From an uncultured Gammaproteobacteria bacterium (lineage in GTDB: Bacteria > Patescibacteriota > Patescibacteriia > UBA9570 > XYC2-FULL-38-9), in contig CAZBLE010000006.1 of the NCBI GenBank assembly GCA_964492735.1, positions 1 to 60,385 of the forward strand: a stretch of 60,385 bases of DNA. The letters are read 5' to 3'. Of the stretch, positions 2,574 through 27,070 are shown piece by piece (the first letter of the stretch is position 1; the number at the start of each line of letters is the position of its first letter). The translations under genes and the position numbers were made by a program. Below the pieces are notes generated by a model that was given only the letters and a program-made list of their open reading frames with translations, did no database searches and was not told the DNA's origin.

Positions 2574-2640
2574 GTTGAGTGAATCAATGTCCTGCTGATA
2601 CAGCAGTAATTATGAGACATAGTAACCATTCGTCATTGAA

Positions 2641-2660: not shown

Positions 2661-2682
2661 CGCTATTCAATAGGTATAGTAT
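2654..2682 (+). promoter_or_regulatory. Sigma70-like promoter TTGACC-17 nt-TAGTAT, 6 nt upstream of the ATG at 2689 (leaderless geometry)
   Basis: -35 at 2654-2659 and -10 at 2677-2682. No Shine-Dalgarno sequence fits before the ATG. Confidence 0.55.
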
Positions 2683-2688
2683 GCATTT

Positions 2689-3348: not shown

Positions 3349-3353
3349 AAGAT

Positions 3354-3593: not shown

Positions 3594-3594
3594 T

Positions 3595-4833: not shown

Positions 4834-4838
4834 TTTGT

Positions 4839-6677: not shown

Positions 6678-7442
6678 ATGATATTCAGTGATACGAACAC
6701 TATGAACACCACCTTAATTATCCCTGCATTTTTTGCGGGCCTCCTCATGTTTCTTGCGCCGTGCACACTGCCACTTGTGCCTGGCTATTTGGCATTTATT
6801 GGTGGCGGCGCTGCGGCGGAACACAAAAAATGGAATATTTTTTGGAATGGTTTTTGGTATGTCATTGGATTTAGTGTCGTGTTTGTATTTCTTGGAAGTA
6901 TTGTTGGATTATTTGGAGCGACTATTCGATTAGATCAACGGCTCTTACTCGGGAGAATTGGTGGGCTGTTTATTTTTCTGTTTGGCGTATTTTTAGTTGG
7001 TGGCTCACAATGGCGTTTTTTACAGTGGATGAATGCGGAAAAAACAGTGCATATCAAAAATCTTCAACCAGGCAAACCGCTTTCGTCATTTTTATTTGGC
7101 GCGACATTTGCAATTGGCTGGACTCCATGTATCGGGCCAATACTCGGTTCTATTTTATTACTTGCAGCCACTTCAACGACAGTATGGCAAGGGGCGGGAT
7201 TACTGGCTGTATTTGCCATGGGTATGGGATTGCCATTTTTACTTCTGGCTGCAACTGCAGATGTTGCAATCAAACGATTGCGATATATCTACGCTTATTT
7301 ACCAATAATACAAAAAATTGGCGGCTTGTTTTTGATTGTCCTAGGACTTTGCATGATGGCTGGGTATATGGATGTGTGGAACAGGGTGCTATATAGCGCA
7401 TTTGGATTCATGCGTTATGAACGGTTGATTGATTTTTACTAG
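6678..7442 (+). CDS. ccdA: Cytochrome c biogenesis / thiol-disulfide transporter CcdA (DsbD transmembrane-domain family)
   Basis: FLAPCTLPLVPGYLAFIGG and IGWTPCIGPILGSILL carry the two conserved membrane Cys-Pro motifs. The true start may be the ATG at 6702, because an extended -10 (TGgTATGAT, 6674-6682) overlaps 6678. Confidence 0.85.
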   Translation: MIFSDTNTMNTTLIIPAFFAGLLMFLAPCTLPLVPGYLAFIGGGAAAEHKKWNIFWNGFWYVIGFSVVFVFLGSIVGLFGATIRLDQRLLLGRIGGLFIFLFGVFLVGGSQWRFLQWMNAEKTVHIKNLQPGKPLSSFLFGATFAIGWTPCIGPILGSILLLAATSTTVWQGAGLLAVFAMGMGLPFLLLAATADVAIKRLRYIYAYLPIIQKIGGLFLIVLGLCMMAGYMDVWNRVLYSAFGFMRYERLIDFY

Positions 7443-8817: not shown

Positions 8818-9834
8818 ATGACGCGTAATCCAAAACATGAATTCATCAAAGGTGTTGAGCGACTCGTGAAACCGACTGACGTTGTCGCGATTAGTTTTTT
8901 GAATGCCTTTACGCGCAGGTTGCCAAAGACGGTCCAAAAAAAGTTGATGGCAAATACAGCGAAAACGATTCCGCACATGGGCTTTGTTGTGGAGCCATAT
9001 AGTTTTTTCCTGTGTTACAAAATCGCAGATCTTGCAATGGCGCAGGCGCTGATTTCTGACAAATATGTTCCAGTGAAAACAAAGATTTTTGATACAGACA
9101 CGCCGGAGTATTATGTGATCTTTGGATGTTTCACAGCGCATACCAGCGCATTTTGGGGAAGTCGGATTGAGATGTATGTGATTGCAGAAAACAAAGAAAC
9201 GGGTTTGCTGAGTTGGGTGATTGTTGATTACGATACAAATACGAATAGCTATGATCCAAAGCGGGGATTGATTGACGCGAATAGTCTCAACACCGCAATG
9301 ACAACAACCCCGCACGGTGAAGTGTTGGTGCACATGGAGCGCGATGACGCGACTCGAGCGCTGGTTGCGCACGCTGACACAACAGCTGGTGTAATGACGC
9401 GACTTGATGAGCGCTTGTGGCTTGAAGGAAATTTGTCAGTGGATTATGGAGAGGCAGCGTCTGACGGAATGGCTGATTTTTTCTCGTTGCAGTTTAACCC
9501 AGATGAAGTTGAGCAGGCGTTAGAGATTCCTGTTCAATCGGCCGCGGTTGAAGTGAATAGTTGGTATCCGGGTTTATTTGCACCGACTCCAAATAAAGTG
9601 GTTTGCTTCCCATATGCACAGCATTTTGTGACAGCAAGTTTTCACGGAATAGCATCTGATGCGATTGCAGACAAACAGGCGTTGATTGCTGAAGTTGAAA
9701 AGCTTGGTGATTTAAGTGGATTTACAGGCTTTTCCGCAAAACCGATAAAGCGACAGCTGGTGATTGGAATGGCTCTTTCGGCCCTTTTCACAACCGGATT
9801 ATTGATCTATAGTATTATTCGGACAGTTTATTAA
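8818..9834 (+). CDS. hypothetical protein with C-terminal transmembrane anchor (338 aa)
   Basis: Long ORF with C-terminal LVIGMALSALFTTGLLIYSII. No family recognised. Confidence 0.55.
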   Translation: MTRNPKHEFIKGVERLVKPTDVVAISFLNAFTRRLPKTVQKKLMANTAKTIPHMGFVVEPYSFFLCYKIADLAMAQALISDKYVPVKTKIFDTDTPEYYVIFGCFTAHTSAFWGSRIEMYVIAENKETGLLSWVIVDYDTNTNSYDPKRGLIDANSLNTAMTTTPHGEVLVHMERDDATRALVAHADTTAGVMTRLDERLWLEGNLSVDYGEAASDGMADFFSLQFNPDEVEQALEIPVQSAAVEVNSWYPGLFAPTPNKVVCFPYAQHFVTASFHGIASDAIADKQALIAEVEKLGDLSGFTGFSAKPIKRQLVIGMALSALFTTGLLIYSIIRTVY

Positions 9835-9922: not shown

Positions 9923-11677
9923 ATGAAAGATTCAAAAAAAGAGGCTTCATCAAAAAAACCGCAAGTCGAAAAACAACCAAGTGTGTTTGTTGTTCTTGCG
10001 CCATATAAACGGCAAATTTCATTGTTGATTGTTGTTGCTCTTGCAATTAATGTCCTTGCGCTCGTTTTGCCAAAAGTGATTTCACACGCCATTGATGACT
10101 TTGCACGTGGTCAATTTGATGCGCAGTATTCATCATTCTTATTCATTGGGGTGATTACCACTATTTTTGCACTGACCTATATTCAAAGTATTTTGCAAAC
10201 GATTGCCTCTGAGCGTGTCGGACGAGATTTGCGCACAGAGCTGTCAGCAAAAATTTCGAAACAGAGTTATGCCAAGATTCAAGAATTGACTCCAGCAACA
10301 TTGCTGACAAATTTAACGTCAGATATTGATGCGATGAAAACATTTGTTGCTCAGGCATTGGTGTCAATGGTTGCATCTGTTGTGACAATTATTGGTGCGA
10401 GTGGATTGTTGCTCTCAATTAATTGGAAGCTTGGTCTTGCAGTGCTCACGATTTTACCAATTATCGCTGGAACATTTTTCTTTGTGCTTTCAAAGGTACG
10501 AAAACTATTTGTCCAAACCCGTGAAGTGATTGATTGGCTCAACAAAGTGATTAACGAAAGTATTTTGGGAGCAGCCTTGATTCGCGTGTTGAACTCACAG
10601 GCATTGGAGCATGAAAAGTTTATTGCCGCGAATGAAAAGGCAAAAAGTTTAGGAATGCAGATTTTGCGCTTGTTTGCTGCGATGATTCCGGTGATTACAT
10701 TTGTAGCCAGTATGGCGACAGTGATTATTCTTGGACTCGGTGGGCACTTTGTGATTGCAGGAACAATGTCGCTCGGTGATTTTGCAGCGTTTAACAGCTA
10801 CCTCAGTACATTGATCTTTCCAATTTTCGTGATTGGATTTATGAGTAATATCATTGCCCAGGCAACAGCGTCGTATGGTCGTATTCGTGCCGTTTTGGAA
10901 TCAGAAGAAAAACCAGAAACGGGAATTATCACTGCTGACCTGAAGGGAGATGTCAGCTTTACTGATGTATCTGTGCAGTACGGTGAAAAATATGCATTGA
11001 AGGATGTAAGTTTTGAAGTTACACCTGGTAGCAAGACTGCGATTATTGGACCGACAGCAGGTGGAAAAACGCAGCTATTGTATCTACTCACTGGTTTAAT
11101 TGAACCGCAGTCGGGGGTTGTGCAATATGATGGCCATCCAATTGTAGAATATGAAACAGCGTCATTGCGCAGGCAAGTGGGAGTGGTGTTTCAGGATAGT
11201 ATTATCTTTCAATTATCAATTCGTGAGAACATTGCATTTAGCGAGGATGTCACAGAAGCAGATGTGCAAAAAGCGATTGAAGCCGCTGAGTTGAAAGATT
11301 TTATTGCCGAATTACCAGATGGATTAGATACAGTTGTATCAGAGCGTGGAACTTCATTGTCCGGCGGACAAAAACAACGGATCATGCTCGCGCGTGCACT
11401 TGCGCTCAATCCGCGTGTGTTGTTGCTTGATGACTTTACGGCTCGGGTTGATACGCAGACCGAAAAAAATATTCTCAGCAATATTGAAAAGAACTATCCA
11501 AACACAACACTCATTTCTGTGACGCAAAAAGTCGCAGCGATTGAGCACTATGATCAAATTGTCGTGTTGATGGAAGGGGAAGTATTGGCAACGGGCACCC
11601 ATGAACACTTGATGCAAACGTCGCCAGAATACGTTCAGATTTATGATTCACAGCAAAGTACACACGCATATGAATAA
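9923..11677 (+). CDS. ABC transporter, fused permease/ATP-binding subunit (type I exporter)
   Basis: Six-TM N-terminal half. Walker A GPTAGGKTQ, signature LSGGQKQR, Walker B LLLDD. Confidence 0.9.
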   Translation: MKDSKKEASSKKPQVEKQPSVFVVLAPYKRQISLLIVVALAINVLALVLPKVISHAIDDFARGQFDAQYSSFLFIGVITTIFALTYIQSILQTIASERVGRDLRTELSAKISKQSYAKIQELTPATLLTNLTSDIDAMKTFVAQALVSMVASVVTIIGASGLLLSINWKLGLAVLTILPIIAGTFFFVLSKVRKLFVQTREVIDWLNKVINESILGAALIRVLNSQALEHEKFIAANEKAKSLGMQILRLFAAMIPVITFVASMATVIILGLGGHFVIAGTMSLGDFAAFNSYLSTLIFPIFVIGFMSNIIAQATASYGRIRAVLESEEKPETGIITADLKGDVSFTDVSVQYGEKYALKDVSFEVTPGSKTAIIGPTAGGKTQLLYLLTGLIEPQSGVVQYDGHPIVEYETASLRRQVGVVFQDSIIFQLSIRENIAFSEDVTEADVQKAIEAAELKDFIAELPDGLDTVVSERGTSLSGGQKQRIMLARALALNPRVLLLDDFTARVDTQTEKNILSNIEKNYPNTTLISVTQKVAAIEHYDQIVVLMEGEVLATGTHEHLMQTSPEYVQIYDSQQSTHAYE

Positions 11678-13445
11678 GTACGCTCTTAATACAAATCAAG
11701 ATCCGACAGAAGAAGGGAGCATGAGTTCGGCTATTGTAAAACTTCGTCCATTGCTCACAAGTGAAACAGCGCAACTCATTCTTGCTGGTATTGCTATTAT
11801 TATCAATTCTACACTGACGCTGATTGGTCCGCTGATTGTCGGGCACGTGATTGATAATGCAATTGCCACAAAAGATTTTAATAGTGTATTGCGTTTTGTT
11901 CTACTATTGATTGGTATTTATTTTCTTGCATTGCTTGCAAGTTACGCGCAAACACGGATTATGGGTGGTGTGAGTCAGCGTGTATTGTATCGCTTGCGTA
12001 ATACAATTTTTGCGAAACTACAAGATTTGCCAGTTGCATTTTTTGGTGCAAATAAAGCGGGTGATTTGATTTCTCGTATTAATAATGACACGGATAAGCT
12101 CGGGCAATTTTTCTCACAATCAATCATGCAGTTTCTTGGAAATATTTTCTTGATCATTGGTTCTGGAATTGCAATCGTGTTGATTAATCCGCGCTTGGGA
12201 CTTGCCGCACTTGTTCCTGCATTTGTGCTATTCATTTTAACAAAACTTCTTGGACCATGGATTAAGCGCAAAAATGCAGTGAATATGAAAAGTGTTGGGG
12301 GAATGAGTGCTGAAATTCAAGAAAGCCTTGATCACTTTAAAGTTGTTGTTGCGTTTAATCGACGTGATTATTTTCGTAAAGCGTTTCAAGAGGCGAACGA
12401 AGAAAATTATTCAACAGCTGTCCGCGCTGGAATTGCGAATAATACATTTACTCCAGTCTATGGATTTGCGTCGAATATCGCAATTTTGATTGTGATTTTA
12501 TATGGCTTCCATTTGATTAGCGCTGGCACATTTACATTTGGATTATTGATTAGTTTTTTGTCTTACATCAATCGACTCTATGATCCACTTCGGCAAATGG
12601 CAGCGCTCTGGACTACATTTCAAGTAGCGCTCGCTGGCTGGGATCGAATTCACGCTATCTTGCAACTGGAAACAGATTTACCAGTTATTCCTGCAGATAC
12701 GGCGCAATCAAGTGCGGCTGTTACAGATGCGATTATGGAATTTCAGGGTGTCGACTTTGGATATACAGATGATGCATTGGTGCTGAACAACATTAGCTTT
12801 GCGCTTGAGCATGGAAAAGCCTACGCATTGGTTGGTCCAACAGGTGGTGGTAAAACAACAACTGCCTCGCTGATGGCTCGATTGTTTGATCCCGCAAACG
12901 GAACAGTACTTTTGAATGGAAAAGATTTGCGATCATACACAACAGATGAACGCGCGGCACAGATTGGGTTTATTTTGCAAGAACCATTTTTGTTCACTGG
13001 AACAGTGGGAGATAATATTCGCTATGGAAATTCCGAATATGCAGATGTTTCAAATGATGATTTAACCGCAGCGCTTGAGCAACAGAATTTGCATGATGTG
13101 ATTGCGAAGTTTGATGAAGGTCTTGATACAAAAATTGAAAATGGTGGTGACTCAATGAGTTTGGGCCAAAAGCAGTTGATTGCATTTGTGCGTGCGCTGC
13201 TCCGTAAACCACAATTACTGATTTTAGATGAAGCCACTGCAAATATTGATACGGTTACTGAGCAATTACTTGAAGCTATTTTACGCAAACTTCCAGAGTC
13301 AACGACTCGAGTAGTTATTGCGCATCGCTTGAATACGATTGCAGATGCAGATACCATTTTCTTCGTGAACGGCGGAACAATTACTGAGGCTGGTTCAATG
13401 GAAAAAGCCGTGGAGCTTCTGATGAGTGGAAAGCGGAAGAGTTAG
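11670..13445 (+). CDS. ABC transporter, fused permease/ATP-binding subunit (heterodimer partner)
   Basis: GPTGGGKTT, LSLGQKQL, LILDEATA. The start is uncertain (11643, 11670 or 11721). It overlaps the upstream stop. Confidence 0.9.
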   Translation: MNKYALNTNQDPTEEGSMSSAIVKLRPLLTSETAQLILAGIAIIINSTLTLIGPLIVGHVIDNAIATKDFNSVLRFVLLLIGIYFLALLASYAQTRIMGGVSQRVLYRLRNTIFAKLQDLPVAFFGANKAGDLISRINNDTDKLGQFFSQSIMQFLGNIFLIIGSGIAIVLINPRLGLAALVPAFVLFILTKLLGPWIKRKNAVNMKSVGGMSAEIQESLDHFKVVVAFNRRDYFRKAFQEANEENYSTAVRAGIANNTFTPVYGFASNIAILIVILYGFHLISAGTFTFGLLISFLSYINRLYDPLRQMAALWTTFQVALAGWDRIHAILQLETDLPVIPADTAQSSAAVTDAIMEFQGVDFGYTDDALVLNNISFALEHGKAYALVGPTGGGKTTTASLMARLFDPANGTVLLNGKDLRSYTTDERAAQIGFILQEPFLFTGTVGDNIRYGNSEYADVSNDDLTAALEQQNLHDVIAKFDEGLDTKIENGGDSMSLGQKQLIAFVRALLRKPQLLILDEATANIDTVTEQLLEAILRKLPESTTRVVIAHRLNTIADADTIFFVNGGTITEAGSMEKAVELLMSGKRKS

Positions 13446-13504: not shown

Positions 13505-14956
13505 TTACAACAACGTGCTCAAATCCAGTGTTTCAGTAATCTGGAGTTGATCGACAAATTCTTGGTCATGACACACAACCACAATCGCACCTTCATAATT
13601 GTTTAAAGCATCAGCAATAATCGGTAAATGACGGAAGTTAATATGATTGGTCGGCTCGTCTAAAATCAATAAGCCCGGTTCTTGCAACAAAAAGCGCGCA
13701 TAGGACAACAAGCCTTTTTGACCTTCAGATAGTTTTCCAATTGGTGTGTGAAGCGCGTCACCTTTTAACAAGAAGTGTGCAGCTGCTTGGTAGAGCTCTT
13801 GCTCACCTCCAGTGACTTGAATCGCTTTCAAGGCTTCAAAGGCTGTACTGTCAAAATCAAGTCCAGAAAAATCTTGTCGATAATATCCTTCGCGAATTCC
13901 TTCAACAATTTCCATTCCTTTTTCAGTCGCATTTGCAAGTGCTTCGAGTAGAGTTGTCTTACCAATACCGTTTGGACCAATAATATGAAGCATATCACCA
14001 CGACGCAGAGTAATGTCGACTTCTTTTTCGCGACGCTCATGATCAACAATAATTCCAACAGACCGTAAATGCAGAATTGGATTTTTCAAATCTTCTTGCA
14101 CAGGAATCACAAATGGGCGAATAGTTTTGTCTTCTTGTCGTACGCTGACCATTGCGTCTTCGCTTTCTTCAATTTCATCACGGAGTTTACTCGCGAGTTT
14201 ACGCATTTTACCACCCTTGTTTGCAAAAAAGTTGACTTTGTCCTTACGATCTTGAATAGTCTTTTTTAATTGCGCATTTTTGCGTTGTTCTCGTTCGACT
14301 TGCGCTGCAATTTCTTCTACTACATCAAAGTAATCGCCAATGTATTGTTGCGTTTTGTGTGTATGCGCGTCTAAGTGAATGACCGCGTCTGTAAAGGTAT
14401 TTAAGAAAGTTGCGTCATGAGAAATCACAATCACAGTTTTTTCGTAGCCAAGTAAAAACGCGATGAGGTGATTGATGCCATCTTCATCTAAATTATTTGT
14501 TGGCTCATCAAGTAACAGGATATCTGGATTTTGTACGAGGGCATAGGCAAGAAGCAAGCGCGCTTGTTGGCCACCGGAGAGTTTTCCAACAAGCCAATCG
14601 AGTGGCAGACTGAGATTCACTGCATCAAACACTTTAGCAATCCGTCGATCCAAGTCATAAATTGTTTCATCTACAAATGCCCGAGCAAAAAAATCAGAAA
14701 TTGAGAGTTCTAAGCAATCGCGTGGAATCACCTGCATGGCAATGCCAACACTCGCGCCGTCTTTAATGTGGATTGTGCCTTTTTCTGGTTGCAGCTCCCC
14801 GGTAATCATTTTAAAAATAGTACTTTTTCCAGCCCCATTTTGACCCATAATGGTCACTTTGCTATTTTCGCGTACAGAAAAACTTGCTTCATCAAGAATC
14901 ATTTTTTTCTCGCCGTATTTATAGGTAACGTCAGTGAATCGAATTGCGACAGACAT
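13505..14956 (-). CDS. ABC-F family ATPase (two ABC cassettes, no transmembrane domain)
   Basis: GQNGAGKST...LSGGQQARL...LLLDEPTN, then GPNGIGKTT...LSEGQKGLL...LILDEPTN. Confidence 0.85.
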   Translation of the reverse strand: MSVAIRFTDVTYKYGEKKMILDEASFSVRENSKVTIMGQNGAGKSTIFKMITGELQPEKGTIHIKDGASVGIAMQVIPRDCLELSISDFFARAFVDETIYDLDRRIAKVFDAVNLSLPLDWLVGKLSGGQQARLLLAYALVQNPDILLLDEPTNNLDEDGINHLIAFLLGYEKTVIVISHDATFLNTFTDAVIHLDAHTHKTQQYIGDYFDVVEEIAAQVEREQRKNAQLKKTIQDRKDKVNFFANKGGKMRKLASKLRDEIEESEDAMVSVRQEDKTIRPFVIPVQEDLKNPILHLRSVGIIVDHERREKEVDITLRRGDMLHIIGPNGIGKTTLLEALANATEKGMEIVEGIREGYYRQDFSGLDFDSTAFEALKAIQVTGGEQELYQAAAHFLLKGDALHTPIGKLSEGQKGLLSYARFLLQEPGLLILDEPTNHINFRHLPIIADALNNYEGAIVVVCHDQEFVDQLQITETLDLSTLL

Positions 14957-15091
14957 AGTTGTAAAATTAAGATAACCGACGCATCATACTGGTTTTTCGC
15001 AGTAAAGTCAATGTTTGCTCTTCGCAGTCTTTTTCAAAGTACTGTATACTATAGACAAGTCTCTAATTAAAAAATGAATAAAAGAGGAGGT

Positions 15092-15874
15092 ATGGCAAAA
15101 CAAACAACAGAGTCTAAAAAATTTACAAATTTACGTCGCTGGAATATCGCAATGTTTTTCTTGCATGCGATTCAAGCCGGACTCATGTTCGCGCTGAGTA
15201 GTGATTTTTCATTACCGCTCACCACGCTATTTGTTGAGTTTAATCCACAGACAATGATGCTTGCTCAAAACATTGAAGAGCTTGGCATGGTCCGCGTTGG
15301 GCCTCTGGTCGCTGGATTTTTAGCGCTGTCTGCGCTCGCGCATTTGCTGGTGTCATTGCCAGGAATTTTTCAGTGGTATGTCCGCAATCTCAAAAAAGGA
15401 GTCAACTACGCACGTTGGATTGAATATTCTCTCAGCTCATCACTCATGATTGTGGTGATCGCAATGCTGACTGGAATGTATGACGCCATTAGTTTGGTGC
15501 TCATGTTCTCACTCAATGCCATGATGATTTTGTTTGGTTGGATGATGGAGCTCCATAATCAATCAACAAAGAAAACAGATTGGACATCATATATCTTTGG
15601 TTGCATTGCCGGAATTATCCCATGGATCGCGATTGCATGTTACCTCGCATTTGCAGGTGAAGGGGATTTCAAAGCGCCGACATTCGTGTATTGGCTCTTC
15701 TTCTCCATGTTCGTGTTCTTTAATACCTTTGCAGTCAACATGATTTTGCAATACAAAAAGGTTGGAAAATGGAGTGATTATACCTACGGCGAAAAAATGT
15801 ATATCATCTTAAGTCTTCTTGCGAAAACAGCGCTTGCGTGGCAAGTGTGGGCCGGGACATTACGTCCAGTGTAA
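15092..15874 (+). CDS. Heliorhodopsin
   Basis: Strong Shine-Dalgarno sequence AAGAGGAGG 2 nt before the ATG at 15092. Family blocks as I recall them from HeR 48C12: RWIEYSLSSSLMIVVIA (counterion Glu), ILFGWMME, FGCIAGIIPWIAI, GEKMYIILSLLAKTALAWQVWAGTL (Schiff-base Lys in SLLAK). Seven TM segments. Confidence 0.85.
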   Translation: MAKQTTESKKFTNLRRWNIAMFFLHAIQAGLMFALSSDFSLPLTTLFVEFNPQTMMLAQNIEELGMVRVGPLVAGFLALSALAHLLVSLPGIFQWYVRNLKKGVNYARWIEYSLSSSLMIVVIAMLTGMYDAISLVLMFSLNAMMILFGWMMELHNQSTKKTDWTSYIFGCIAGIIPWIAIACYLAFAGEGDFKAPTFVYWLFFSMFVFFNTFAVNMILQYKKVGKWSDYTYGEKMYIILSLLAKTALAWQVWAGTLRPV

Positions 15875-15885
15875 AGAGCGCGCGT

Positions 15886-17607
15886 ATGAATTTTTTGCAT
15901 AAAAAAAATCTTCGTCGTTCGTTTTTACTGCTTTTGTCACTCGCGTGTGTTTCACACCTTGCGACAGGTTCGGTATTCGCTGCATCATCAGTATCGACGA
16001 CAATCAAAGCCACAAAAATTCTATTGAATAAAAAAGGCTCTTCTATTTCAGCACAAGGTGCGCGGCCTGTTATTATTAAAGATGGATTAAAGGTGACAGG
16101 GGATATTACAGTAGGTGATGGAAAAACAGTTGATGGAGTGGATGTTGGAAATTTAGCTGCGACGGTTGCAGCATTGCAGTTAGGAACAGGAGGAGTTTCA
16201 TACACGGCCGGAACAGGTGTTTCTATTAGTGGTACAGCAATTAGCGCAACTCTTGGAACAAGCGTTGAATCAGCTGAGCTCACTGATGCGACAGTTACAG
16301 CTGATGATTTAGCAGATAATAGTGTTGGTGCGGGGGAGCTTGGAAATACTGCAATTCAAAATGGTGATATTGAAACTGCCGATCTTCCGAATGATTTAGC
16401 AATTTCTGGAGGTACAATCAATAACACAACGATTGGAGCAACAACAGCTTCAACAGGAAATTTTTCAAATCTTACGCTCAATGGAACCTCTCCGGTATTG
16501 CCCGTGCTCGGCTCTGTCCCAAAAGCAATTGTGAATAGGACTATTGATACAATAGGGCAAGGTCCTTCTACAACGATTGGAGTGGATGGTTTTCCGATTA
16601 TTTCCTATATTGATAGTACAAACCGTGATTTAAAAGTTGCACATTGTGAGAATGTGAATTGTAGCAGTTCGACTATTACAACAGTATCTGATGATGGACG
16701 GCTCTATACGGCTATTATTATTGGAGCAGATGGTTTGCCAGTGATTGTCTATGACCGATTTAGTTCCAATGGTGTTATGGTGGTAAAGTGTGGCAACACT
16801 GCCTGTTCTTCCGGAAACACCACCTCTGTTATTGAAGCAGTGAGTATACGTTTACCTTCAATAAGTATTGGAGCAGATGGTTTGCCAGTTCTGGCCTATA
16901 ATGAAGTGTCTGGTGCTGATTTAAAAGCTGTAAAATGTGGGAATACAGCGTGTTCTTCTGGAAATACTATTACAACGATTGATAATGATAGTATTGTTTC
17001 TTTTAGTCCAACAACGATTGTGGTGCCACCGGATGGACTACCGGTTATTGCATACCATAAATATAGTAGTGCATTTGATTTAAAAGTTGCAAAGTGCACA
17101 CTTGCAGATTGTTCAACAAGTACCACCGAAATTCTTGATACTCCAAATAATGTTGGACTCTATAGCTCGTTAACGATTGGTATTGATGGCTTGCCAATAG
17201 TGAGTTATTACGATGATTCGAATGATAATTTAATGATTGCAAAATGTGGTGATGCAACATGTACAAATGCATCTGCAACTATCACAACCGTTGATAGTAC
17301 TGGGAATGTCGGGTCTGGTAACACTATTACGATTGGGCCTGATGGGTTTCCGATTGTTGCGTATATGGATGAGACAAATGGTTATATAAAAGTACTCAAA
17401 TGCAGCACATTGAGCTGCGCAACGGGAAATACAACAACTGCAGTAGTGAATCTTAACACAACATCATTTTTCTACGTGCATATACTTTCTCTAACAATGG
17501 GTAGGAATAATTTGCCATTTATTGCGTACTTCCACCAAGGAGATGAAAGTCTGAGAACGGCGGCTCTTGGTAGTATTTTTGGTAGTGGGTATTTTATCCG
17601 CAGGTAG
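15886..17607 (+). CDS. Secreted surface protein: signal peptide, fibre-like G/T/S-rich region, seven-blade repeat domain with conserved Cys pairs
   Basis: Signal peptide MNFLHKKNLRRSFLLLLSLACVSHLATGSVFA. The repeat unit is IGxDGxPxIxYxDxxxxxLKxxKCxxxxCxxxxxT. Confidence 0.7.
   Translation: MNFLHKKNLRRSFLLLLSLACVSHLATGSVFAASSVSTTIKATKILLNKKGSSISAQGARPVIIKDGLKVTGDITVGDGKTVDGVDVGNLAATVAALQLGTGGVSYTAGTGVSISGTAISATLGTSVESAELTDATVTADDLADNSVGAGELGNTAIQNGDIETADLPNDLAISGGTINNTTIGATTASTGNFSNLTLNGTSPVLPVLGSVPKAIVNRTIDTIGQGPSTTIGVDGFPIISYIDSTNRDLKVAHCENVNCSSSTITTVSDDGRLYTAIIIGADGLPVIVYDRFSSNGVMVVKCGNTACSSGNTTSVIEAVSIRLPSISIGADGLPVLAYNEVSGADLKAVKCGNTACSSGNTITTIDNDSIVSFSPTTIVVPPDGLPVIAYHKYSSAFDLKVAKCTLADCSTSTTEILDTPNNVGLYSSLTIGIDGLPIVSYYDDSNDNLMIAKCGDATCTNASATITTVDSTGNVGSGNTITIGPDGFPIVAYMDETNGYIKVLKCSTLSCATGNTTTAVVNLNTTSFFYVHILSLTMGRNNLPFIAYFHQGDESLRTAALGSIFGSGYFIRR
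16570..17607 (+). repeat. Seven tandem coding repeats of about 46-52 aa (propeller-blade-like); six contain a C-x4-C pair
   Basis: Examples: LKVAHCENVNCSSST, VVKCGNTACSSGNT, AVKCGNTACSSGNT, VAKCTLADCSTST, IAKCGDATCTNAS, VLKCSTLSCATGNT. The last unit is degenerate and lacks the Cys pair. Confidence 0.75.
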
Positions 17608-17644: not shown

Positions 17645-19021
17645 ATGATTTCACCATGGATTCACCAACTGAACCGAACACGACCTGCTGCAGAACTGTC
17701 TGAAAATGCTATTGCTGATGTTGTTGTGATTGGCGCAGGGATTGCTGGAGTGACAACAGCTTACTATATATTGAAAAACACCACGCACCGCGTCTTTCTC
17801 ATTGAAGCGGGGAAAGTTGCGCATGGTGCAACTGGGCACAACGCAGGGCAAATTGCGAGTTATTTTGAACGCACGTTTGCAGACATTGCAGATGAGTTTG
17901 GCTTGGAGCTTGCGGCTCGTGGCCAAGAGTCGATTGATAACGCGTGGATTTTGCTTGAAGAAATTTTGCGTGATACAGCAATTCCAGCGCCACTCTGGCC
18001 GGTGACCGGGTATGCAGGAATTTCAAGTTCGGAATTGCTCGCGACCTATCTTGAAGATACCTATTTAAAACATTCAGCTGGTATTCAAGCAGAAGATCTA
18101 TTGATTGCAGATACAGTTGATCTCATAACAATTCCAGAAAAATACCACGGTCATTATACGGTATTGCCGCTCGCTGACATTCAGTCACTCCTGAACACAA
18201 ATGACCCAGAGTATATCGCCGCCTTGCGCGGTCGGAAAGGGTGTATGAATAGCGCGCTGTTTTGTGAAGAGCTGGTTCAATGGATGCTTGAGAATTATGC
18301 GGAGCGTTTACGCCTTGCTGAACACTCTCCGGTGCAACTTGTTCAATGTATGGCTGATGGTGTGATTGTGCATGCCAATGGTTTTACGATTCCAGCACAA
18401 TACGCAGTGCTTTGCACAAATGGTTTCGAGCATTTTGCAATTGAAAGTGAGAACAATCCAACACTCAATACAGATTTTCATTCGATGATTCATGGTACAA
18501 TTGGCTATATGGCTGCGTATCTTGACGAACAGGATCAGCCGCCAGCTGCGATGAGTTATTTAGAGCTTGTTGAATCGGCAGAGTCGCGTGACTCTGAGCC
18601 ACCGGCGTATATTTATTTAACACGCCGGCCGTTTGAACTCGAGGCTGATAAAAAACATAATTTGATTTGTATCGGTGGACCAGAGGAGTACCTGGAAGAT
18701 CATCGAGAATATTCACCAGACATGGCATATCGAGATCTTTCGTTAGTCGAGATGACAGAGTTTTTACAGAAAACTGTGCGTGATGCGCCGACAGATCCAA
18801 AGTATACATATCAATGGCATGGCCTGATGGGGTATACGCGCAATAATATGCGTCGGGTTGGACCGGAGCCAACTGAATCACGCCTGCTGTATAACCTTGG
18901 ATGTAATGGTGTTGGAATTTTACCGTCTATTTTTGGCGGGCACCGAATTGCGCGGTATTTAAATAATGAGTCTGTTGAGCCGTCAATCTTTGATGTCCCA
19001 AATCAATTATCATCTGTATGA
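17645..19021 (+). CDS. FAD-dependent oxidoreductase (DAO family)
   Basis: Dinucleotide-binding motif VVVIGAGIAGVTTAYYIL. 458 aa. Confidence 0.75.
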   Translation: MISPWIHQLNRTRPAAELSENAIADVVVIGAGIAGVTTAYYILKNTTHRVFLIEAGKVAHGATGHNAGQIASYFERTFADIADEFGLELAARGQESIDNAWILLEEILRDTAIPAPLWPVTGYAGISSSELLATYLEDTYLKHSAGIQAEDLLIADTVDLITIPEKYHGHYTVLPLADIQSLLNTNDPEYIAALRGRKGCMNSALFCEELVQWMLENYAERLRLAEHSPVQLVQCMADGVIVHANGFTIPAQYAVLCTNGFEHFAIESENNPTLNTDFHSMIHGTIGYMAAYLDEQDQPPAAMSYLELVESAESRDSEPPAYIYLTRRPFELEADKKHNLICIGGPEEYLEDHREYSPDMAYRDLSLVEMTEFLQKTVRDAPTDPKYTYQWHGLMGYTRNNMRRVGPEPTESRLLYNLGCNGVGILPSIFGGHRIARYLNNESVEPSIFDVPNQLSSV

Positions 19022-19716
19022 AAAAAACTTCTTGGGATCAAGAATATGAAAAGCCTGTATTAATGACAGGAAGCACAACAGCGCAGCCATCTGTTTTAAA
19101 ATTATTGCGCTTACTCAAAAAGCAATATGATTTTCGAGTTGAAGATAAACGGATTCTTGATTTTGCGTGTGGAACAGGGCGACTAGCGATTGATCTTGCA
19201 CAGCGCGGTGCAACAGTTTCTGGTTTTGATATCTCTGGCATCGCGATTGAGCAGGCTCGCAAAATGGCCCATGAGCACGGTTTGAGAATTGACCTCAAGC
19301 AATTTGAGTGGAATGCGCGGGCCACGATTGACGAGCGTGAGGCATATTTTGATGGTGTGATCATGAATATGGCGTTTCATTTATTTGATGCAGCAGGGCG
19401 TACGCATGCGCTGCAAGAAATTCATCGTATTCTTCGGCCACGTGGTTTTGTGGTTATTCGGACGCTGGCAGTAGAAGGGGATACGAATGCAAAGCAGTTG
19501 CTCGTAGATCACCCATCACCGCAAGATCCAGGCTCATACCGCATGCCAGACATGAAGCATGACGAGCATCCATTCTCACGCACAGAACTAATGGAGTTGT
19601 TTGGTGCTACAGGCAACTGGACTGTTGTGCATATCCAAAAAGTGACAGGGCACCCACGATTTAATGGCAAGATCTATAAAAGACAGTATTGGGAAGTGAT
19701 TGCACAAAAAGCATAG
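19018..19716 (+). CDS. Class I SAM-dependent methyltransferase
   Basis: ILDFACGTGRLAIDLAQRGATVSGFDIS (motif I plus acidic post-I). ATGA overlap with the upstream gene. Confidence 0.75.
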   Translation: MKKTSWDQEYEKPVLMTGSTTAQPSVLKLLRLLKKQYDFRVEDKRILDFACGTGRLAIDLAQRGATVSGFDISGIAIEQARKMAHEHGLRIDLKQFEWNARATIDEREAYFDGVIMNMAFHLFDAAGRTHALQEIHRILRPRGFVVIRTLAVEGDTNAKQLLVDHPSPQDPGSYRMPDMKHDEHPFSRTELMELFGATGNWTVVHIQKVTGHPRFNGKIYKRQYWEVIAQKA

Positions 19717-19776
19717 ATTTTTGTGATGAGGACCGTAGGTTTGTAGATATCCTTATTTTTCGGTATGATTTCAATC

Positions 19777-19881
19777 ATGCGCCAACAAATAAGATATCAA
19801 TATAGTCGTTATGCTGCTGATAGTATTGTTTTTTTATTGCTAGGGTTTGCTATTTTTATGGTATCGAGGAGTTGCGGATAA
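19777..19881 (+). other. Short ORF encoding the missing first transmembrane helix of the NOX-like gene, in a different frame
   Basis: MRQQIRYQYSRYAADSIVFLLLGFAIFMVSRSCG-stop. Removing one T from the T5 run at 19853-19857 fuses it to the downstream frame, giving ...LLLGFAILWYRGVADNN.... Confidence 0.5.
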
Positions 19882-21103
19882 CAACGTATTTACAACAACA
19901 GAATCAACCCTGACAGCAATCGGGCAGGTCCTTGGCTTCATTGGTATTGTATTATTCGCGTTGAATTTGATTATCAGCGCGCGGTTTATATGGCTTGAAG
20001 GACTCTTTGGAGGTCTGAATCGTTTGTATATTCAACATAGTCGTTACGGTCAATGGGCATTTATTGCATTATTGTTTCACCCATTGCTCTTGGTTTTTCA
20101 ATATAGCGGCGGGTCATTTGTGCTCGCAATCAAGTTTTTGTTGCCGAGCGATAATGTACCACTGACATTTGGCATCATCGGTCTGTATTCAATGATTGCA
20201 TTAATTGCATTGACGCTCTATATTCGTCCGCATTATCACTTATGGAAATGGCTGCATAAATTATTTGGTGTGGCATTTTTCTTTGGAGGATTGCATGTGT
20301 TATTAATTCCAAGTTCTTTGAGTCAATATGCGCCATTAAAAATCTATATCTTAACGATCGTTGTCTTAGGTTTGTCGGCGTATGTGTACCGCAGTCTGCT
20401 CGCGCAGTTTTTCGTGCGCCAATATCGATATACGGTGTTGAGTGTAACACCATTAAATAACATGATTACACGCGTTCTTTTAAAGCCCGTCGCACAGCCC
20501 ATGAATCATCGGGCTGGGCAATTTTTGTTTATTCGATTTATTGACCATGATGTATCTGCTGAAGCACATCCATTTAGTATTGTGTCAGAGCCGGGCGCAG
20601 AATTTTTAGAAATTGCTGTAAAAAATAGTGGTGATTATACGGCAAGGCTGAATCAGTTGTCGGCAGGGTCCGAAGCTTTTCTTGAAGGGCCATTCGGCTA
20701 TTTTTTCGTGCCCAATGGGGCGGTGCAAAAACAAGTCTGGGTTGCCGGAGGAATTGGGATCACGCCATTCATGGGTCGGGTGCGTTTAATGGCACAGTCA
20801 GGCCTATCTGAAGGGGAGTCTATTGATTTCTATTATTGTGTGCGAAATAGTACTGAAACAGTGTATCTTGATGAGCTGCGTGCACTCGAACAATTATTTC
20901 CCGGCCGATTTCGTGTCATTGTTTTTGCATCTGATACAGAAGGCCGCATTACTGCAGAAACGATTGCAGAGCGCTCTGGAGGACTTACAGAGACAGATGT
21001 GTTTATGTGCGCACCACCTGCCATGATTCACAGTTTAAAGAAACAATTTCGAGCGATCGGTGTTTCAAAAGCTGCGCTGCATTCAGAAGAATTTTCGTTG
21101 TAA
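19847..21103 (+). CDS. NOX-like membrane oxidoreductase: ferric-reductase transmembrane domain plus FAD-binding and NAD(P)H-binding FNR-like domains
   Basis: Bis-His heme motifs HSRYGQWAFIALLFH (H-x13-H) and HKLFGVAFFFGGLH (H-x12-H). FAD motif HPFSIVS, NAD(P)H motif VAGGIGITPF, and C-terminal MCAPPAM. Only 5 TM helices lie in this frame; the sixth is in the 19777 frame. Confidence 0.8.
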   Translation: MLFLWYRGVADNNVFTTTESTLTAIGQVLGFIGIVLFALNLIISARFIWLEGLFGGLNRLYIQHSRYGQWAFIALLFHPLLLVFQYSGGSFVLAIKFLLPSDNVPLTFGIIGLYSMIALIALTLYIRPHYHLWKWLHKLFGVAFFFGGLHVLLIPSSLSQYAPLKIYILTIVVLGLSAYVYRSLLAQFFVRQYRYTVLSVTPLNNMITRVLLKPVAQPMNHRAGQFLFIRFIDHDVSAEAHPFSIVSEPGAEFLEIAVKNSGDYTARLNQLSAGSEAFLEGPFGYFFVPNGAVQKQVWVAGGIGITPFMGRVRLMAQSGLSEGESIDFYYCVRNSTETVYLDELRALEQLFPGRFRVIVFASDTEGRITAETIAERSGGLTETDVFMCAPPAMIHSLKKQFRAIGVSKAALHSEEFSL

Positions 21104-21106
21104 TAT

Positions 21107-21466
21107 ATGAAATACCTCACACTCGCTGCTATGATCATTTTCACGCTGACTGTTGGAACAGTTGGTCTCTTGAGCTTGCTGTTTCCGAATGCAACCTATG
21201 CACCAACCTCATCTGCAAATGCAAATCAAGCAGCGCAACCAACCTTTACTGCAAAGCAAGTCTCACAGCACGCAAAAAAAACCGACTGTTATTTAATCGT
21301 GAAGGGAGTTGTCTATGACGTGACGTCATATATTGGCGCGCATCCAGGAGGAGCAGGGGAGATTACAAGTCGTTGCGGCGGCGAAGTAACAAGTATATTC
21401 ACTTCAATTCATTCAAATGCAGCCTGGAACCTGCTTGGAAAATATGAGGTAGGAAAATTACAATAG
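21107..21466 (+). CDS. Exported or membrane-anchored cytochrome b5-like heme-binding domain protein
   Basis: N-terminal hydrophobic segment, then CYLIVKGVVYDVTSYIGAHPGG...SIHS (HPGG and HS heme ligands). Starts 3 nt after the NOX-like stop. Confidence 0.8.
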   Translation: MKYLTLAAMIIFTLTVGTVGLLSLLFPNATYAPTSSANANQAAQPTFTAKQVSQHAKKTDCYLIVKGVVYDVTSYIGAHPGGAGEITSRCGGEVTSIFTSIHSNAAWNLLGKYEVGKLQ

Positions 21467-21480
21467 ACCGCGCGAGTTTG

Positions 21481-22152
21481 TTATCGTGTGAATATTGAAT
21501 AGAGTGCAATCGCAGCAGCGTGGGTGACATTCAGTGATTCAAGGGTTTCGTTATGTTCAATAACGAGGGAAGTGCCGCTAATGTCCATTGTGATGCCGTG
21601 TCCTTCAGAGCCGAGAATAATCACTGGTCGTGTTGCGACTGTTGCTTGTTGCAAGGCAATGCTTTCAGGTCGCTTTTCAATGCGGTACACTGGTCGCTCT
21701 AAGGCCGTAATGAATTCAACTGCCTTTCCGCGAGTCATACTCATCCATGGAACGTGAAAGAGTGCGCCACTACTTGCACGCACAACCTTTGAGCTCGTAA
21801 TATCAGCTGACTCAATCGCAATAATTGCACCATCAAATGCAAGGGCAAGGCGTAATAATGTACCGACGTTCCCTGGATCTTGCACACCGTCTAATACAAC
21901 GACCACAGATTGATTTTGGATGTCATCGAGCGTCCATTCCGGAATGCGTGCCACTGCCGCAATGGGTTGAGGGTGTTCGGTTGTGACAAGTGTTTCAAAT
22001 TTAAAGCTATCGTTTCCCGTAAATGTCCATTCAATATAGCTCTTTGCTTCTGCGACTGGGATTTCACCTTCGACTAATAGGAGGTTGTTTTCTCGACGAC
22101 CTTTTTTTGTGTGGAGTTTTTTAATCAGTGATTCTTGGGCTTTTGTGAGCAT
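21481..22152 (-). CDS. TrmH/SpoU-family RNA 2'-O-methyltransferase
   Basis: VVVLDGVQDPGNVGTLLRLALAFD, IILGSEGHGI, ESLNVTHAAAIALY. Confidence 0.85.
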   Translation of the reverse strand: MLTKAQESLIKKLHTKKGRRENNLLLVEGEIPVAEAKSYIEWTFTGNDSFKFETLVTTEHPQPIAAVARIPEWTLDDIQNQSVVVVLDGVQDPGNVGTLLRLALAFDGAIIAIESADITSSKVVRASSGALFHVPWMSMTRGKAVEFITALERPVYRIEKRPESIALQQATVATRPVIILGSEGHGITMDISGTSLVIEHNETLESLNVTHAAAIALYSIFTR

Positions 22153-22204
22153 AAGATGAGTGTGTTATGATAATTTCGCAGTTCCTACTATTTATAACAC
22201 ATTT

Positions 22205-22705
22205 ATGAAATATACACTTTCTATTGCCTTGTTCAGCGCTTTGCTGCTCATGGGCGCATCTTGTGGTAAAACCGCAGATACAACAACAAATACAACAGAG
22301 TCAGCAATAGCGAATGCTCAAGCAGCTGCTTCTGTGACAACAAATTCTACGAATACAGCAGTAAATACAACTACTCCAACAAATACCAACACAAATAAAA
22401 CAGCTGGTGTGACGACTACAACAAATGACGCTCAAGCAGGTCTTGAAGAGCCAGCGGCGGCTGCAAGTGGCATTTCAGCCAGTGATATTGCAAAACACAA
22501 CACAAAATCAGATTGTTGGACAAGTATTTCTGGAAAAGTGTATGACGTGACGAAGTACATCGCGAAGCATCCAGGTGGTCAGGTGATTACACAAATATGC
22601 GGAAAAGAGGGTACGCAGCTATTTGCAACACAAGGTGGACGTGGGCAACACAGCGGCACAGCTCGATCTCAACTTGCGACATTTGAGATCGGAACATTGC
22701 AATAA
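22205..22705 (+). CDS. Exported (possibly lipoprotein) cytochrome b5-like heme-binding domain protein with T/N-rich linker
   Basis: MKYTLSIALFSALLLMGASCGK signal peptide, low-complexity TTNT linker, then CWTSISGKVYDVTKYIAKHPGG...QHSGTA. Confidence 0.8.
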   Translation: MKYTLSIALFSALLLMGASCGKTADTTTNTTESAIANAQAAASVTTNSTNTAVNTTTPTNTNTNKTAGVTTTTNDAQAGLEEPAAAASGISASDIAKHNTKSDCWTSISGKVYDVTKYIAKHPGGQVITQICGKEGTQLFATQGGRGQHSGTARSQLATFEIGTLQ

Positions 22706-26811: not shown

Positions 26812-26826
26812 AAGAGACGTTTCTTG

Positions 26827-26900
26827 TTGCGGGGGCTGGATTTGAACCAGCGACCTCCTGGTTATGAGCCAGGCGAGCTGCCAGACTGCTCTACCCCGCG
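26827..26900 (-). tRNA. Initiator tRNA-Met (anticodon CAT); CCA not encoded
   Basis: The reverse complement reads CGCGGGGTAGAGCAGTCTGGCAGCTCGCCTGGCTCATAACCAGGAGGTCGCTGGTTCAAATCCAGCCCCCGCAA. This is nearly identical in layout to E. coli tRNA-fMet, including the C1xA72 mismatch. Downstream sequence is CAAGAA rather than CCA. Confidence 0.9.
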
Positions 26901-26988
26901 CATCAATACTGAATCATTCAGGGCTGATGTGCTGTGTAGAACAGATGTTATGAAGACAATAGCAGAAATGTATCTGTATTGCAACGTG

Positions 26989-27070
26989 TACCGGAGGAGA
27001 GGGTCGAACTCTCATGGGTTTCCCCGCACGATCTTGAGTCGTGTGCGTCTGCCAGTTCCGCCACTCCGGC
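26989..27070 (-). tRNA. tRNA-Leu (anticodon CAA), long variable arm; CCA not encoded
   Basis: The reverse complement reads GCCGGAGTGGCGGAACTGGCAGACGCACACGACTCAAGATCGTGCGGGGAAACCCATGAGAGTTCGACCCTCTCCTCCGGTA (82 nt). Anticodon loop is CT-CAA-GA. Confidence 0.9.

Follow-up and report, generated by a model that had tools for sequence, protein, structure and literature searches.

A conserved heliorhodopsin gene on a patescibacterial contig and an acetoacetate-decarboxylase-like family as its candidate partner

Introduction

Which protein might be acted upon by the heliorhodopsin (HeR) encoded at 15092..15874 on the forward strand of the 60,385-nt stretch of DNA analysed here (the window), and from where would it obtain its retinal? 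Heliorhodopsins are light-sensing membrane proteins that carry retinal, and the partners demonstrated experimentally are a handful: glutamine synthetase, photolyase and one ABC exporter. An earlier note on this DNA recognised the gene and put forward two of its immediate neighbours, a secreted propeller protein and an ABC-F ATPase, as a possible new functional partner. Here, these two candidates are weighed together with an ABC exporter pair, a string of redox genes and an unannotated gene upstream, according to their recurrence at the HeR loci of relatives (designated by L numbers).

Results

The open reading frame at 15092..15874 is a genuine, well-conserved heliorhodopsin, ordinary for Patescibacteria. 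Its 260-aa product matches Pfam PF18761 with 331.7 bits (cutoff 26.7) over profile positions 1-242 of 242, and the NCBIfam HeR equivalog NF038020 with 336.5 bits (cutoff 100). The PDB sequence matches include TaHeR (6is6, E=2e-75) and 48C12 (6su3, E=2e-62), with which full-length alignment gives 52% and 45% identity, respectively. The Schiff-base Lys of the SxxxK motif in TM7, K245, corresponds to K241 of 48C12 and K238 of TaHeR, and S241 of the same motif corresponds to S237 and S234. The counterion Glu of TM3, E111, is E107 in 48C12 and E108 in TaHeR. Of the conserved His residues, H25 is equivalent to H23 of 48C12, and H84 to H80 of 48C12 and H82 of TaHeR, while R108 aligns with R104 of 48C12. 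The view that this is a HeR with intact Lys, Glu and His is thus borne out by the profile scores and by the mapping of K245, E111, H25 and H84. The motifs quoted in the earlier note (RWIEYSLSSSLMIV, ILFGW, FGCIAGIIPWI and GEKMYIILSLLAKTALAWQVWAGTL) are all found, the 48C12 strings that it set against them agree with the PDB sequence of 48C12, and the alignment with 48C12 and TaHeR, which it had suggested, places the Lys of SLLAK at the Schiff-base position.

Besides Lys, Glu, the two His and SxxxK, the protein shares the motifs RWxEYS and FGCIAG with 48C12 (6SU3) and with TaHeR (6IS6), which belongs to a Thermoplasmatales archaeon; it differs from both in coming from a CPR bacterium. Position 217 is Met, as in TaHeR, whereas 48C12 has Gln213. 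The inverted topology of these two proteins is also predicted for the window HeR. Lys and Arg residues number five at the N-terminus and four, two and four in loops 88-117, 152-167 and 220-235, and loops 38-68 and 187-200 are acidic; this positive-inside pattern suggests a cytoplasmic N-terminus and an outside C-terminus. The basic residues of ICL1 (R100, K103, K104 and R108) are kept.

The span of the frame is 15074/15092..15874 when both candidate starts are considered. The exact start is slightly uncertain, because an in-frame ATG at 15074 would add six residues and a GAGGAGG motif ends only 2 nt before the ATG at 15092. The HeR genes called in near relatives are 260 aa long, equal to the product from 15092. 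A dN/dS of 0.04, at dS 0.52, indicates purifying selection and, together with the intact frame and all the key residues, rules out a decaying gene or pseudogene.

The relatives of this HeR that carry a name belong to Patescibacteria, Kerfeldbacteria and Dojkabacteria, and the gene is that of a CPR bacterium probably related to Kerfeldbacteria. Near relatives were recovered from freshwater metagenomes, among them Lake Mendota sample 3300042861, while an exact-sequence look-up of the window HeR in public assemblies gave no record. The novelty that had been implied for the gene is lower than supposed, since CPR heliorhodopsins have been documented (Chiriac et al. 2022, PMC9166423; Bulzu et al. 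2021, PMC8612252) and NCBI already annotates the relatives in Kerfeldbacteria and Patescibacteria MAGs as 'heliorhodopsin HeR'. Those published proteins come from the same phylum-level group, their retinal motifs (SLVAK, SLIAK and SFVAK) are of the same type as SLLAK, and they too occur without a retinal pathway (PMC9166423, PMC8612252). The two surveys cover mostly Saccharimonadia and describe redox or histidine-kinase neighbours (PMC9166423, PMC8612252).

Among the 49 main ORFs of the 60 kb, Pfam gave no match to SQS_PSY, Amino_oxidase, lycopene cyclase, BCD or RPE65, in accord with the remark that no crtE/B/I/Y or blh gene is visible. The sole carotenoid-associated family in the window is PF14108, found with 116.5 bits in an ABA4-like membrane protein (48169..48867, reverse strand). 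A Blh-like identity for the multi-TM orphan ORFs of the window was also considered and dropped, a lenient re-scan giving no match at E up to 5. Rhodopsin-bearing Saccharibacteria are likewise without blh, HeR takes up external retinal fast, and a host or environmental source of retinal has already been proposed for such reduced-genome bacteria (PMC9296517). Since both the published CPR genomes and this contig are without a carotenoid or retinal pathway, the chromophore would most likely be obtained in finished form from a host or the environment. The suggestion of retinal scavenging by a reduced-genome organism agrees with this, the organism being one of the Patescibacteria.

Regarding the immediate neighbours, the ABC-F gene (13505..14956, reverse strand) is indeed divergent from HeR across an intergenic region of 135 nt (14957..15091). 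It encodes a soluble ATPase with two NBDs (two ABC_tran domains) and no TMD, and its best NCBIfam match is a ribosomal protection-like ABC-F with 315 bits, under the cutoff of 380. Promoter-like hexamers can be read in the intergenic region at 15021-15050 (+) and 15011-14983 (-), though the promoter and terminator scans of the locus were at chance level overall and are therefore uninformative. On the other side, the propeller gene (15886..17607, forward strand) has its ATG at 15886, 11 nt past the HeR stop, as had been noticed. The encoded protein has a signal-peptide-like N-terminus, a low-complexity Gly/Thr-rich stalk of ~190 residues and a seven-bladed lectin-like beta-propeller made of about seven repeats of ~50 aa, with one C-x4-C pair per blade. 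The propeller is modelled by AF2 with pLDDT above 90 over residues ~215-565 (~350 residues), and the top Foldseek matches are the Photorhabdus PLL/PHL lectins (TMt 0.72-0.80, E~1e-12). These lectins are also seven-bladed and extracellular, a location predicted for the window protein. In contrast to them, the window protein carries the C-x4-C pairs, the signal peptide and the stalk, and identity is 12-14%.

The model of the earlier note, in which HeR works with the co-transcribed secreted propeller and/or the divergent ABC-F ATPase, draws on this arrangement. The two genes share a strand and are separated by 11 nt with no terminator-like site between them (in a scan at chance level); the propeller lectin is probably co-transcribed with HeR. 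In L171, L172 and L173, a propeller ortholog begins 11 nt after HeR and the order HeR-propeller-DAO is kept; ABC-F remains divergent from HeR in L067 and L172. Contact at the outer face would be topologically possible, given the long extracellular loop and the outside C-terminus of HeR. However, the HeR-propeller-DAO order, with ABC-F across the divergent gap, is kept only in near relatives, whose HeR shows 96.5% identity at a nucleotide identity of about 80%, and is explained by shared descent because it is seen only at that level of HeR identity. At HeR identities of 80% or less, homologs of the propeller, DAO, methyltransferase and ferric-reductase genes lie within 10 kb in none of 85 HeR loci. 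The expectation of a neighbourhood conserved among HeR-bearing relatives therefore stands, trivially, for the near relatives and fails at the 85 more distant loci.

Other features of the propeller point the same way. No HeR lies near a homolog of 49% identity, the protein evolves fast (70-73% identity and dN/dS of 0.24 vs 0.04 for HeR), and its domain is widespread and, in many phyla, joined to surface modules of the PKD or SLH type. Moreover, the characterised HeR partners all bind the cytoplasmic face (PMC11109279), whereas the propeller is secreted. As for ABC-F, a housekeeping-type soluble ATPase, it is found elsewhere only 3-9 kb from HeR, in a few near or clade relatives, and was rejected as a partner, this being residual synteny only. 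The propeller was likewise rejected as a conserved partner beyond near relatives, and most likely represents a fast-evolving surface adhesin that is unrelated to HeR and only by chance its neighbour. A new partnership with either neighbour is weakly supported on these counts, and we regard it as decidedly unlikely.

The ABC-transporter precedent does not fit ABC-F, a soluble ribosome-associated ATPase, but a pair of genes at 9923..13445, a point that the note had missed. These encode two half-transporters, each with TMD and NBD, of a heterodimeric type-I exporter. The first (9923..11677, forward strand) has Pfam ABC_membrane and ABC_tran domains and is MsbA/SmdA-like by NCBIfam; the second (11643..13445), identified by Pfam, overlaps it by 35 nt and matches TM_0288 (315 bits) and TmrA (6raf, 281 bits) in the PDB. 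The pair is 1.6 kb upstream of HeR on the same strand, and the opposite-strand ABC-F gene separates them. In Ornithinimicrobium cerasi, OcHeR regulates the heterodimeric MDR ABC exporter OmrDE, to which it binds by means of ICL1, and the operon order is hp-omrD-omrE-helR (Cho et al. 2024, PMC11109279).

A system of this type would mean that light-dependent up-regulation of the exporter is the chief task of HeR, the hypothetical gene that precedes the pair in the window (8818..9834) being a passenger and the counterpart of 'hp'. The window resembles the published operon in its half-transporter pair, which is of the TM287/288 and TmrAB class, in its order hypothetical-ABC-ABC-(ABC-F)-HeR and in the basic cytoplasmic loops of its HeR, including the ICL1 residues, and the ABC pair occurs together with HeR again in L088. 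Unlike the published case, the cluster is interrupted by an opposite-strand gene, hence it would not form a single operon, and there is no conservation of this layout among CPR HeRs. The pair near HeR recurs only in L088/L089, and a full-length exporter homolog within 10 kb was found at none of 43 well-flanked species-representative CPR HeR loci, which also rules out a general enrichment of ABC exporters near CPR HeRs. Furthermore, the closest genus-level relatives have HeR beside a homolog of the hypothetical gene and are without the ABC pair, while L104 carries the pair and that gene without HeR. This reading is accordingly considered unlikely.

Downstream of the propeller there is a co-directional string of redox genes (17645..21466, forward strand) that, according to Pfam, encode a DAO-type FAD oxidoreductase, a SAM methyltransferase, a ferric-reductase-like flavocytochrome and cytochrome b5. 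Light and oxidative-stress sensing has been proposed generally for monoderm and CPR HeRs, and glutaredoxin, peroxidase and catalase are enriched in published HeR neighbourhoods (PMC8612252, PMC9166423). The window HeR might by analogy be a sensor that controls the adjacent DAO oxidase, the ferric-reductase-like flavocytochrome and two cytochrome b5 proteins; in L086, the homolog of the hypothetical gene adjoins MsrA and MsrB, which would agree with a redox role. Nevertheless, none of these redox genes recurs near other HeRs, DAO and methyltransferase being jointly syntenic in L171 only, and the window HeR does not adjoin glutaredoxin or GSHPx, families that are enriched in the published neighbourhoods. 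BLAST detects no homology between the ferric-reductase protein of the window and that of L005 (E=0.05), so their orthology is unsupported. Control of these genes by HeR thus appears improbable.

The gene that does recur is the hypothetical one at 8818..9834 (forward strand), which encodes a tail-anchored protein of 338 aa with an acetoacetate-decarboxylase (ADC)-like beta-cone fold. The proteins of 338 aa that neighbour HeR in L005 and L001 show no homology to the window propeller; their true homolog in the window is this ADC-like protein. Members of its family directly adjoin HeR in L001, L005, L007, L018, L088, L107, L121, L133 and L162. In the four closest genus-level relatives, the adjacency comes in four different arrangements, covering all four orientations; in more distant members the gap is 8 nt (L088), 13 nt (L107) or 154 nt (L133), and the genes are also adjacent in L121 and L162. 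The HeRs linked in this manner fall in at least three distinct regions of the HeR tree, and no residue that could mark linked vs unlinked HeRs is common to all three linked clades.

Viewed from the ADC-like family, HeR is the commonest true neighbour, found within 5 kb at 13 of 82 non-redundant loci. In well-flanked loci from the search with this family, HeR is within 10 kb in 6 of 23 and adjacent in 4 of 23, against naive expectations of about 2% and 0.2%, the linkage P-values treating loci as independent and ignoring their relatedness. HeR was not found within 10 kb at the other 17 of 23 loci, and of the 80 closest species-representative HeR loci just 2 carry the ADC-like gene. In the window itself the two genes are 5.3 kb apart and not adjacent, and they do not form one operon because an oppositely oriented gene intervenes. 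L088 again combines the ADC-like gene with the ABC pair and HeR. The ADC-like family tracks HeR across clades and, rather than the adjacent propeller, is the likeliest candidate for its working partner.

The ADC-like ORF has no sequence match in Pfam, NCBIfam or the PDB, and 32 members of its family, together with 10 distant relatives drawn from a profile search of 1.84 billion proteins, provided no sequence bridge to these databases either. The small, unannotated family comprises about 250 clusters among the 1.84 billion representatives and is found in CPR bacteria; it is absent from the reports of the CPR HeR surveys (PMC9166423, PMC8612252). The gene has a dN/dS of 0.08. An AF2 model of the protein (pLDDT 89.3, pTM 0.87) has as top Foldseek matches in the PDB the ADC-superfamily enzymes 3c8w, 3bgt, 5upb and 4zbt with probability 1.0, the fold match being moderate (E 1e-6 to 4e-4, TM 0.32-0.53). 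The beta-cone fold is thus shared with ADC-superfamily proteins such as 3BH2/3BGT, Sbi_00515 (4ZBT) and Swit_4259 (5UPB), from which the window protein differs in the lack of sequence similarity and of an invariant catalytic lysine, and in having three additional helices at the N-terminus and, at the C-terminus, a membrane anchor predicted from a single TM helix. Its soluble domain, predicted to be cytoplasmic and tethered to the membrane, has a net charge of -12, and the cytoplasmic loops of HeR are basic. The 50 columns that are invariant across 32 diverse members contain no Lys (K11 and K87 are conserved at 90% or more) and include His108, His269, Glu118, Asp137, Arg199, Glu203 and Tyr266, a set that suggests an active or ligand-binding site.

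Discussion

The linkage of an ADC-like protein to an opsin could also be due to the chromophore. In ADC enzymes, the active site lies in a deep funnel within the beta-cone fold and acts on carbonyl substrates. The ADC-like protein could then be a new retinal-handling protein that captures or releases retinal, or makes it from a host-derived precursor, and it would lie beside opsin genes, as blh does elsewhere, because it handles retinal. The invariant residues would fit a ligand site, the known retinal genes are missing from CPR bacteria, and adjacency in varied orientations recalls blh, which is often found beside rhodopsin genes (PMC9296517). Against this, the fold is unlike that of the known carotenoid oxygenases (the RPE65 propeller and the Blh membrane protein), the family is without an invariant lysine, and neither type of rhodopsin is found within 10 kb of most members. 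A search for a type-1 rhodopsin beside the HeR-less ADC-like genes, made with an approximate probe sequence, gave no bacteriorhodopsin-like match in the loci examined. In addition, HeR needs no help to bind free retinal rapidly (PMC9296517). A role of the ADC-like protein in serving the chromophore is therefore judged highly improbable.

The reading that we prefer is that of a light sensor with a cytoplasmic partner. The window HeR is predicted to have seven helices with the N-terminus in the cytoplasm; K245 would bind all-trans retinal and E111 would serve as the counterion. As in the bacterial HeRs characterised so far, ion pumping is most likely absent; judging from the family, the protein is probably a slow-cycling light sensor that alters the activity of a partner protein through its positively charged cytoplasmic loops. 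The best-supported candidate for that partner is the acidic, tail-anchored cytoplasmic protein of ADC-like fold, which may work jointly with the TmrAB-type ABC exporter pair encoded directly after it. Taken as a whole, an account in which a functional CPR HeR uses scavenged retinal and acts as a light sensor on the ADC-like protein, perhaps with the ABC pair, seems to us reasonably probable. More tentatively, HeR and the CPR-restricted ADC-like protein might constitute an undescribed light-responsive pair, in which either HeR switches an enzyme on the cytoplasmic side of the membrane (in some lineages together with a TmrAB-type ABC exporter) or the ADC-like protein handles scavenged retinal; we consider this possible, though doubtful.

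Alone, the window HeR adds little to what is known of heliorhodopsins, as CPR HeRs and their dependence on outside retinal have already been published. If true, either version of the pair would place a new phylum-specific effector among the few known HeR partners. A functional link between HeR and the ADC-like family would mean a new effector of HeR signalling in ultra-small symbionts, and would give a first clue to the function of an orphan protein family.

The heliorhodopsin gene

The protein encoded in the window is, judging from its sequence, close to certain to be a functional heliorhodopsin (HeR). The ORF at 15074..15874 (+) contains an ATG at 15092, with a GAGGAGG motif directly 5′ of it, giving a 260-aa product (15092..15874), the same length as in the gene calls of near relatives. 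This product covers the entire Pfam model Heliorhodopsin (PF18761; 331.7 bits, cutoff 26.7) and passes the NCBI equivalog model (336.5 bits, cutoff 100). The top solved-structure matches are TaHeR (6IS6, E=2e-75, 52% identity) and 48C12 (6SU3, E=2e-62, 45% identity), followed by other HeRs, with type-1 rhodopsins at about E 0.008 at best. The earlier note had made the identification from 48C12 strings, which agree with the PDB sequence, and its intact retinal-binding Lys, TM3 Glu and conserved His are borne out by alignment to 48C12. The Lys of SLLAK occupies the Schiff-base position (K245, K241 in 48C12), S241 of the SxxxK motif corresponds to S237, the counterion E111 to E107, and the conserved H25, H84 and R108 to H23, H80 and R104, respectively. 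Five K/R in the N-terminus, 4, 2 and 4 in the putative cytoplasmic loops, and acidic outer loops fit a cytoplasmic N-terminus. Compared with a relative about 80% identical in nucleotide sequence, the protein is 96.5% identical (dN/dS 0.04 at dS 0.52); the gene is genuine, and it is both intact and under constraint. By analogy with the family, the protein is probably a slow-cycling sensor that acts by modulating partners and does not pump ions.

Of 7657 homologs retrieved with this HeR, those close to it that carry a name are annotated 'heliorhodopsin HeR' and come from MAGs of Patescibacteria, Kerfeldbacteria and Dojkabacteria. In Patescibacteria (CPR), 98 HeRs have been reported in 86 genomes, class ABY1 included (PMC9166423), and CPR heliorhodopsins are documented as well in PMC8612252; the window HeR is a genuine but ordinary member. 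Several MAGs whose contigs carry CPR-type HeR and ADC-like genes (L067, L007-L009 and similar loci) are titled Bdellovibrionales, Gammaproteobacteria or Actinomycetota, labels that, from gene content and accompanying homologs, are probably placeholders or mis-binned.

Source of retinal

Pfam scans of the 49 main ORFs of the window detected no phytoene synthase/desaturase, lycopene cyclase, Blh or RPE65 family, nor did a lenient re-scan of the multi-TM orphan ORFs, which upholds the earlier statement that 60 kb contain no retinal-synthesis genes. The sole carotenoid-associated family is an ABA4-like membrane protein of 232 aa (48169..48867, −; PF14108, 116 bits), a family tied in plants to the synthesis of the carotenoid neoxanthin. 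Retinal scavenging, as proposed before, is a reasonable inference, but it is not new: rhodopsin-bearing CPR bacteria without blh have been described, which probably use host retinal, and free retinal is taken up fast by HeR (PMC9296517).

Neighbouring genes as candidate partners

The propeller protein and the ABC-F ATPase on either side of HeR had been proposed as its partners. The propeller gene (15886..17607, +) starts 11 nt past the HeR stop; in its product, a signal peptide and a low-complexity stalk precede about seven repeats of ~50 residues, each with a C-x4-C pair. AlphaFold models residues ~215-565 with confidence (pLDDT above 90), and the model resembles the Photorhabdus PLL/PHL lectins, which have seven blades (TM up to 0.80, E about 1e-12), so that 'secreted propeller' was correct and a sugar-binding surface adhesin would be the likeliest role. 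The neighbourhood is kept in the very close relatives L171, L172 and L173, where a 260-aa HeR, an identical 11-nt gap, a propeller ortholog (70-73% identical) and a DAO gene follow one another. However, homologs of the propeller, DAO, methyltransferase and ferric reductase genes lie within 10 kb of HeR in none of 85 loci with HeR identity ≤80%. Nor does a HeR lie near a propeller homolog of 49% identity. No gene of the block evolves faster than the propeller gene (dN/dS 0.24), whose repeat domain is widespread and occurs in fusions with PKD or SLH modules. As a partner conserved beyond near relatives, the propeller was rejected on the evidence of the 85 loci and of the 49%-identical homolog.

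Upstream, the divergent ABC-F gene (13505..14956, −) encodes a protein that has two ABC ATPase domains and lacks a membrane domain; ABC-F models fit best, with scores below curated cutoffs. The divergent arrangement recurs in the very close relatives L067 and L172, but elsewhere ABC-F is found only 3-9 kb from HeR, in three loci, and was likewise set aside. Such short-range synteny is as expected from shared descent and lends no support to a functional tie with either neighbour; as partners, both are weakly supported.

An ABC exporter would be a candidate by literature precedent, with poor conservation. The stretch from the ADC-like gene to ABC-F holds two overlapping TMD-NBD half-transporter genes (9923..13445, +) of the TM287/288 and TmrAB class. 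OmrDE, encoded in the operon hp-omrD-omrE-helR, is of this class too, and OcHeR raises its activity in light (PMC11109279). The ADC-like gene, an ABC pair and HeR occur together again in L088; no exporter of this class lies nearby in 43 well-flanked CPR HeR loci, and the closest genus-level relatives have no ABC exporter next to HeR.

Other genes of the window

A redox cluster, unusual for a reduced-genome bacterium, occupies 17645..22705; it encodes a DAO-type FAD oxidase, a flavocytochrome of ferric-reductase/NOX-like type with TM, FAD and NAD domains, and, at 21107..21466 and 22160..22705, two proteins with a cytochrome b5 domain. Weak homologs of the cytochrome b5 proteins occur no more than 10 kb from HeR in L007, L009 and L048. 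At 468..5903, a defence-like cluster comprises a ParB_N-fused type II DNA methyltransferase (468..1739; PADLOC MTase_II, 229 bits), an S24 peptidase/LexA-like gene (2689..3348), a DUF2130 protein (3595..4833) and a DUF4917/SIR2-like protein (4830..5903; PADLOC candidate system PDC-S21, 302 bits). ARAGORN placed tRNA-Met(CAT) and tRNA-Leu(CAA) at 26826..27070 (−), adjoining parA/parB genes; Rfam recovered tRNA-Met(CAT) only. Sizeable ORFs at 52651..54843 (−), 49311..50375 (+), 24696..25859 (+) and 36058..37893 (+) had no Pfam match; Pfam-less ORFs of the window measure 730, 354, 387, 322 and 273 aa.

A HeR-linked ADC-like family

Among the partner candidates, only the acetoacetate-decarboxylase-like (ADC-like) protein has cross-clade neighbourhood support. 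The window gene (8818..9834, +; 338 aa) has a homolog directly beside HeR in each of the four closest genus-level relatives, every time in a different arrangement: upstream (L001) or downstream (L005) on the same strand, convergent (L007) and divergent (L018). In L001 (8001..11889, contig shared with L090), two HeR paralogs that share 78% and 73% identity with the window HeR flank the ADC-like gene in the order HeR1, 179-aa ORF, ADC-like gene, HeR2. The family search returned about 980 CPR proteins, none annotated; the family accounts for only 250 clusters among 1.84 billion representatives. In a survey of 80 metagenome loci plus others (82 non-redundant loci), HeR was the commonest true neighbour, within 5 kb in 13 and directly adjacent in 9. 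In well-flanked loci from the family search, HeR was within 10 kb in 6/23 and adjacent in 4/23, against naive expectations of about 2% and 0.2% (binomial P 5e-6 and 1e-7, uncorrected for phylogeny). In a neighbour-joining tree of HeRs, the linked ones come from no fewer than three separate parts, among them a deep-branching group. Against a partnership count the 5.3 kb between the two genes in the window, the lack of a nearby HeR for most family members, and a comparison of linked and unlinked HeRs that found no residues specific to the former.

The ADC-like protein has no sequence match in Pfam, NCBIfam or PDB. Its AlphaFold model (pLDDT 89, pTM 0.87) predicts three N-terminal helices, a beta-rich core and a single C-terminal TM helix, and Foldseek matched the core to acetoacetate decarboxylase superfamily enzymes (E 1e-6 to 4e-4, TM 0.4-0.53). 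The 50 invariant positions of the family include H108, E118, D137, R199, E203, Y266 and H269 and no lysine, so that it is not a classical Schiff-base ADC enzyme. Given the C-terminal anchor and no signal peptide, the soluble domain should be cytoplasmic; it is acidic (net charge −12), which suits the basic cytoplasmic loops of HeR, loops that mediate binding in known HeR-partner pairs (PMC11109279).

A DsbD-type thiol-disulfide membrane protein is encoded just upstream of the ADC-like gene (window 6678..7442; L170 2850..3590), directly adjoining it in L170 and separated from it in the window by a CNNM/CorC transporter gene. On a Saccharibacteria contig (L086, 7011..8990), an ADC-like gene without HeR within 8 kb adjoins genes for the methionine sulfoxide reductases MsrA and MsrB, a Fur regulator, rhodaneses and a glutaredoxin, surroundings suggestive of a link between the family and oxidative stress.

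The published literature searched makes no mention of a HeR-linked ADC-like family, and it is this family that the analysis adds to what is known.
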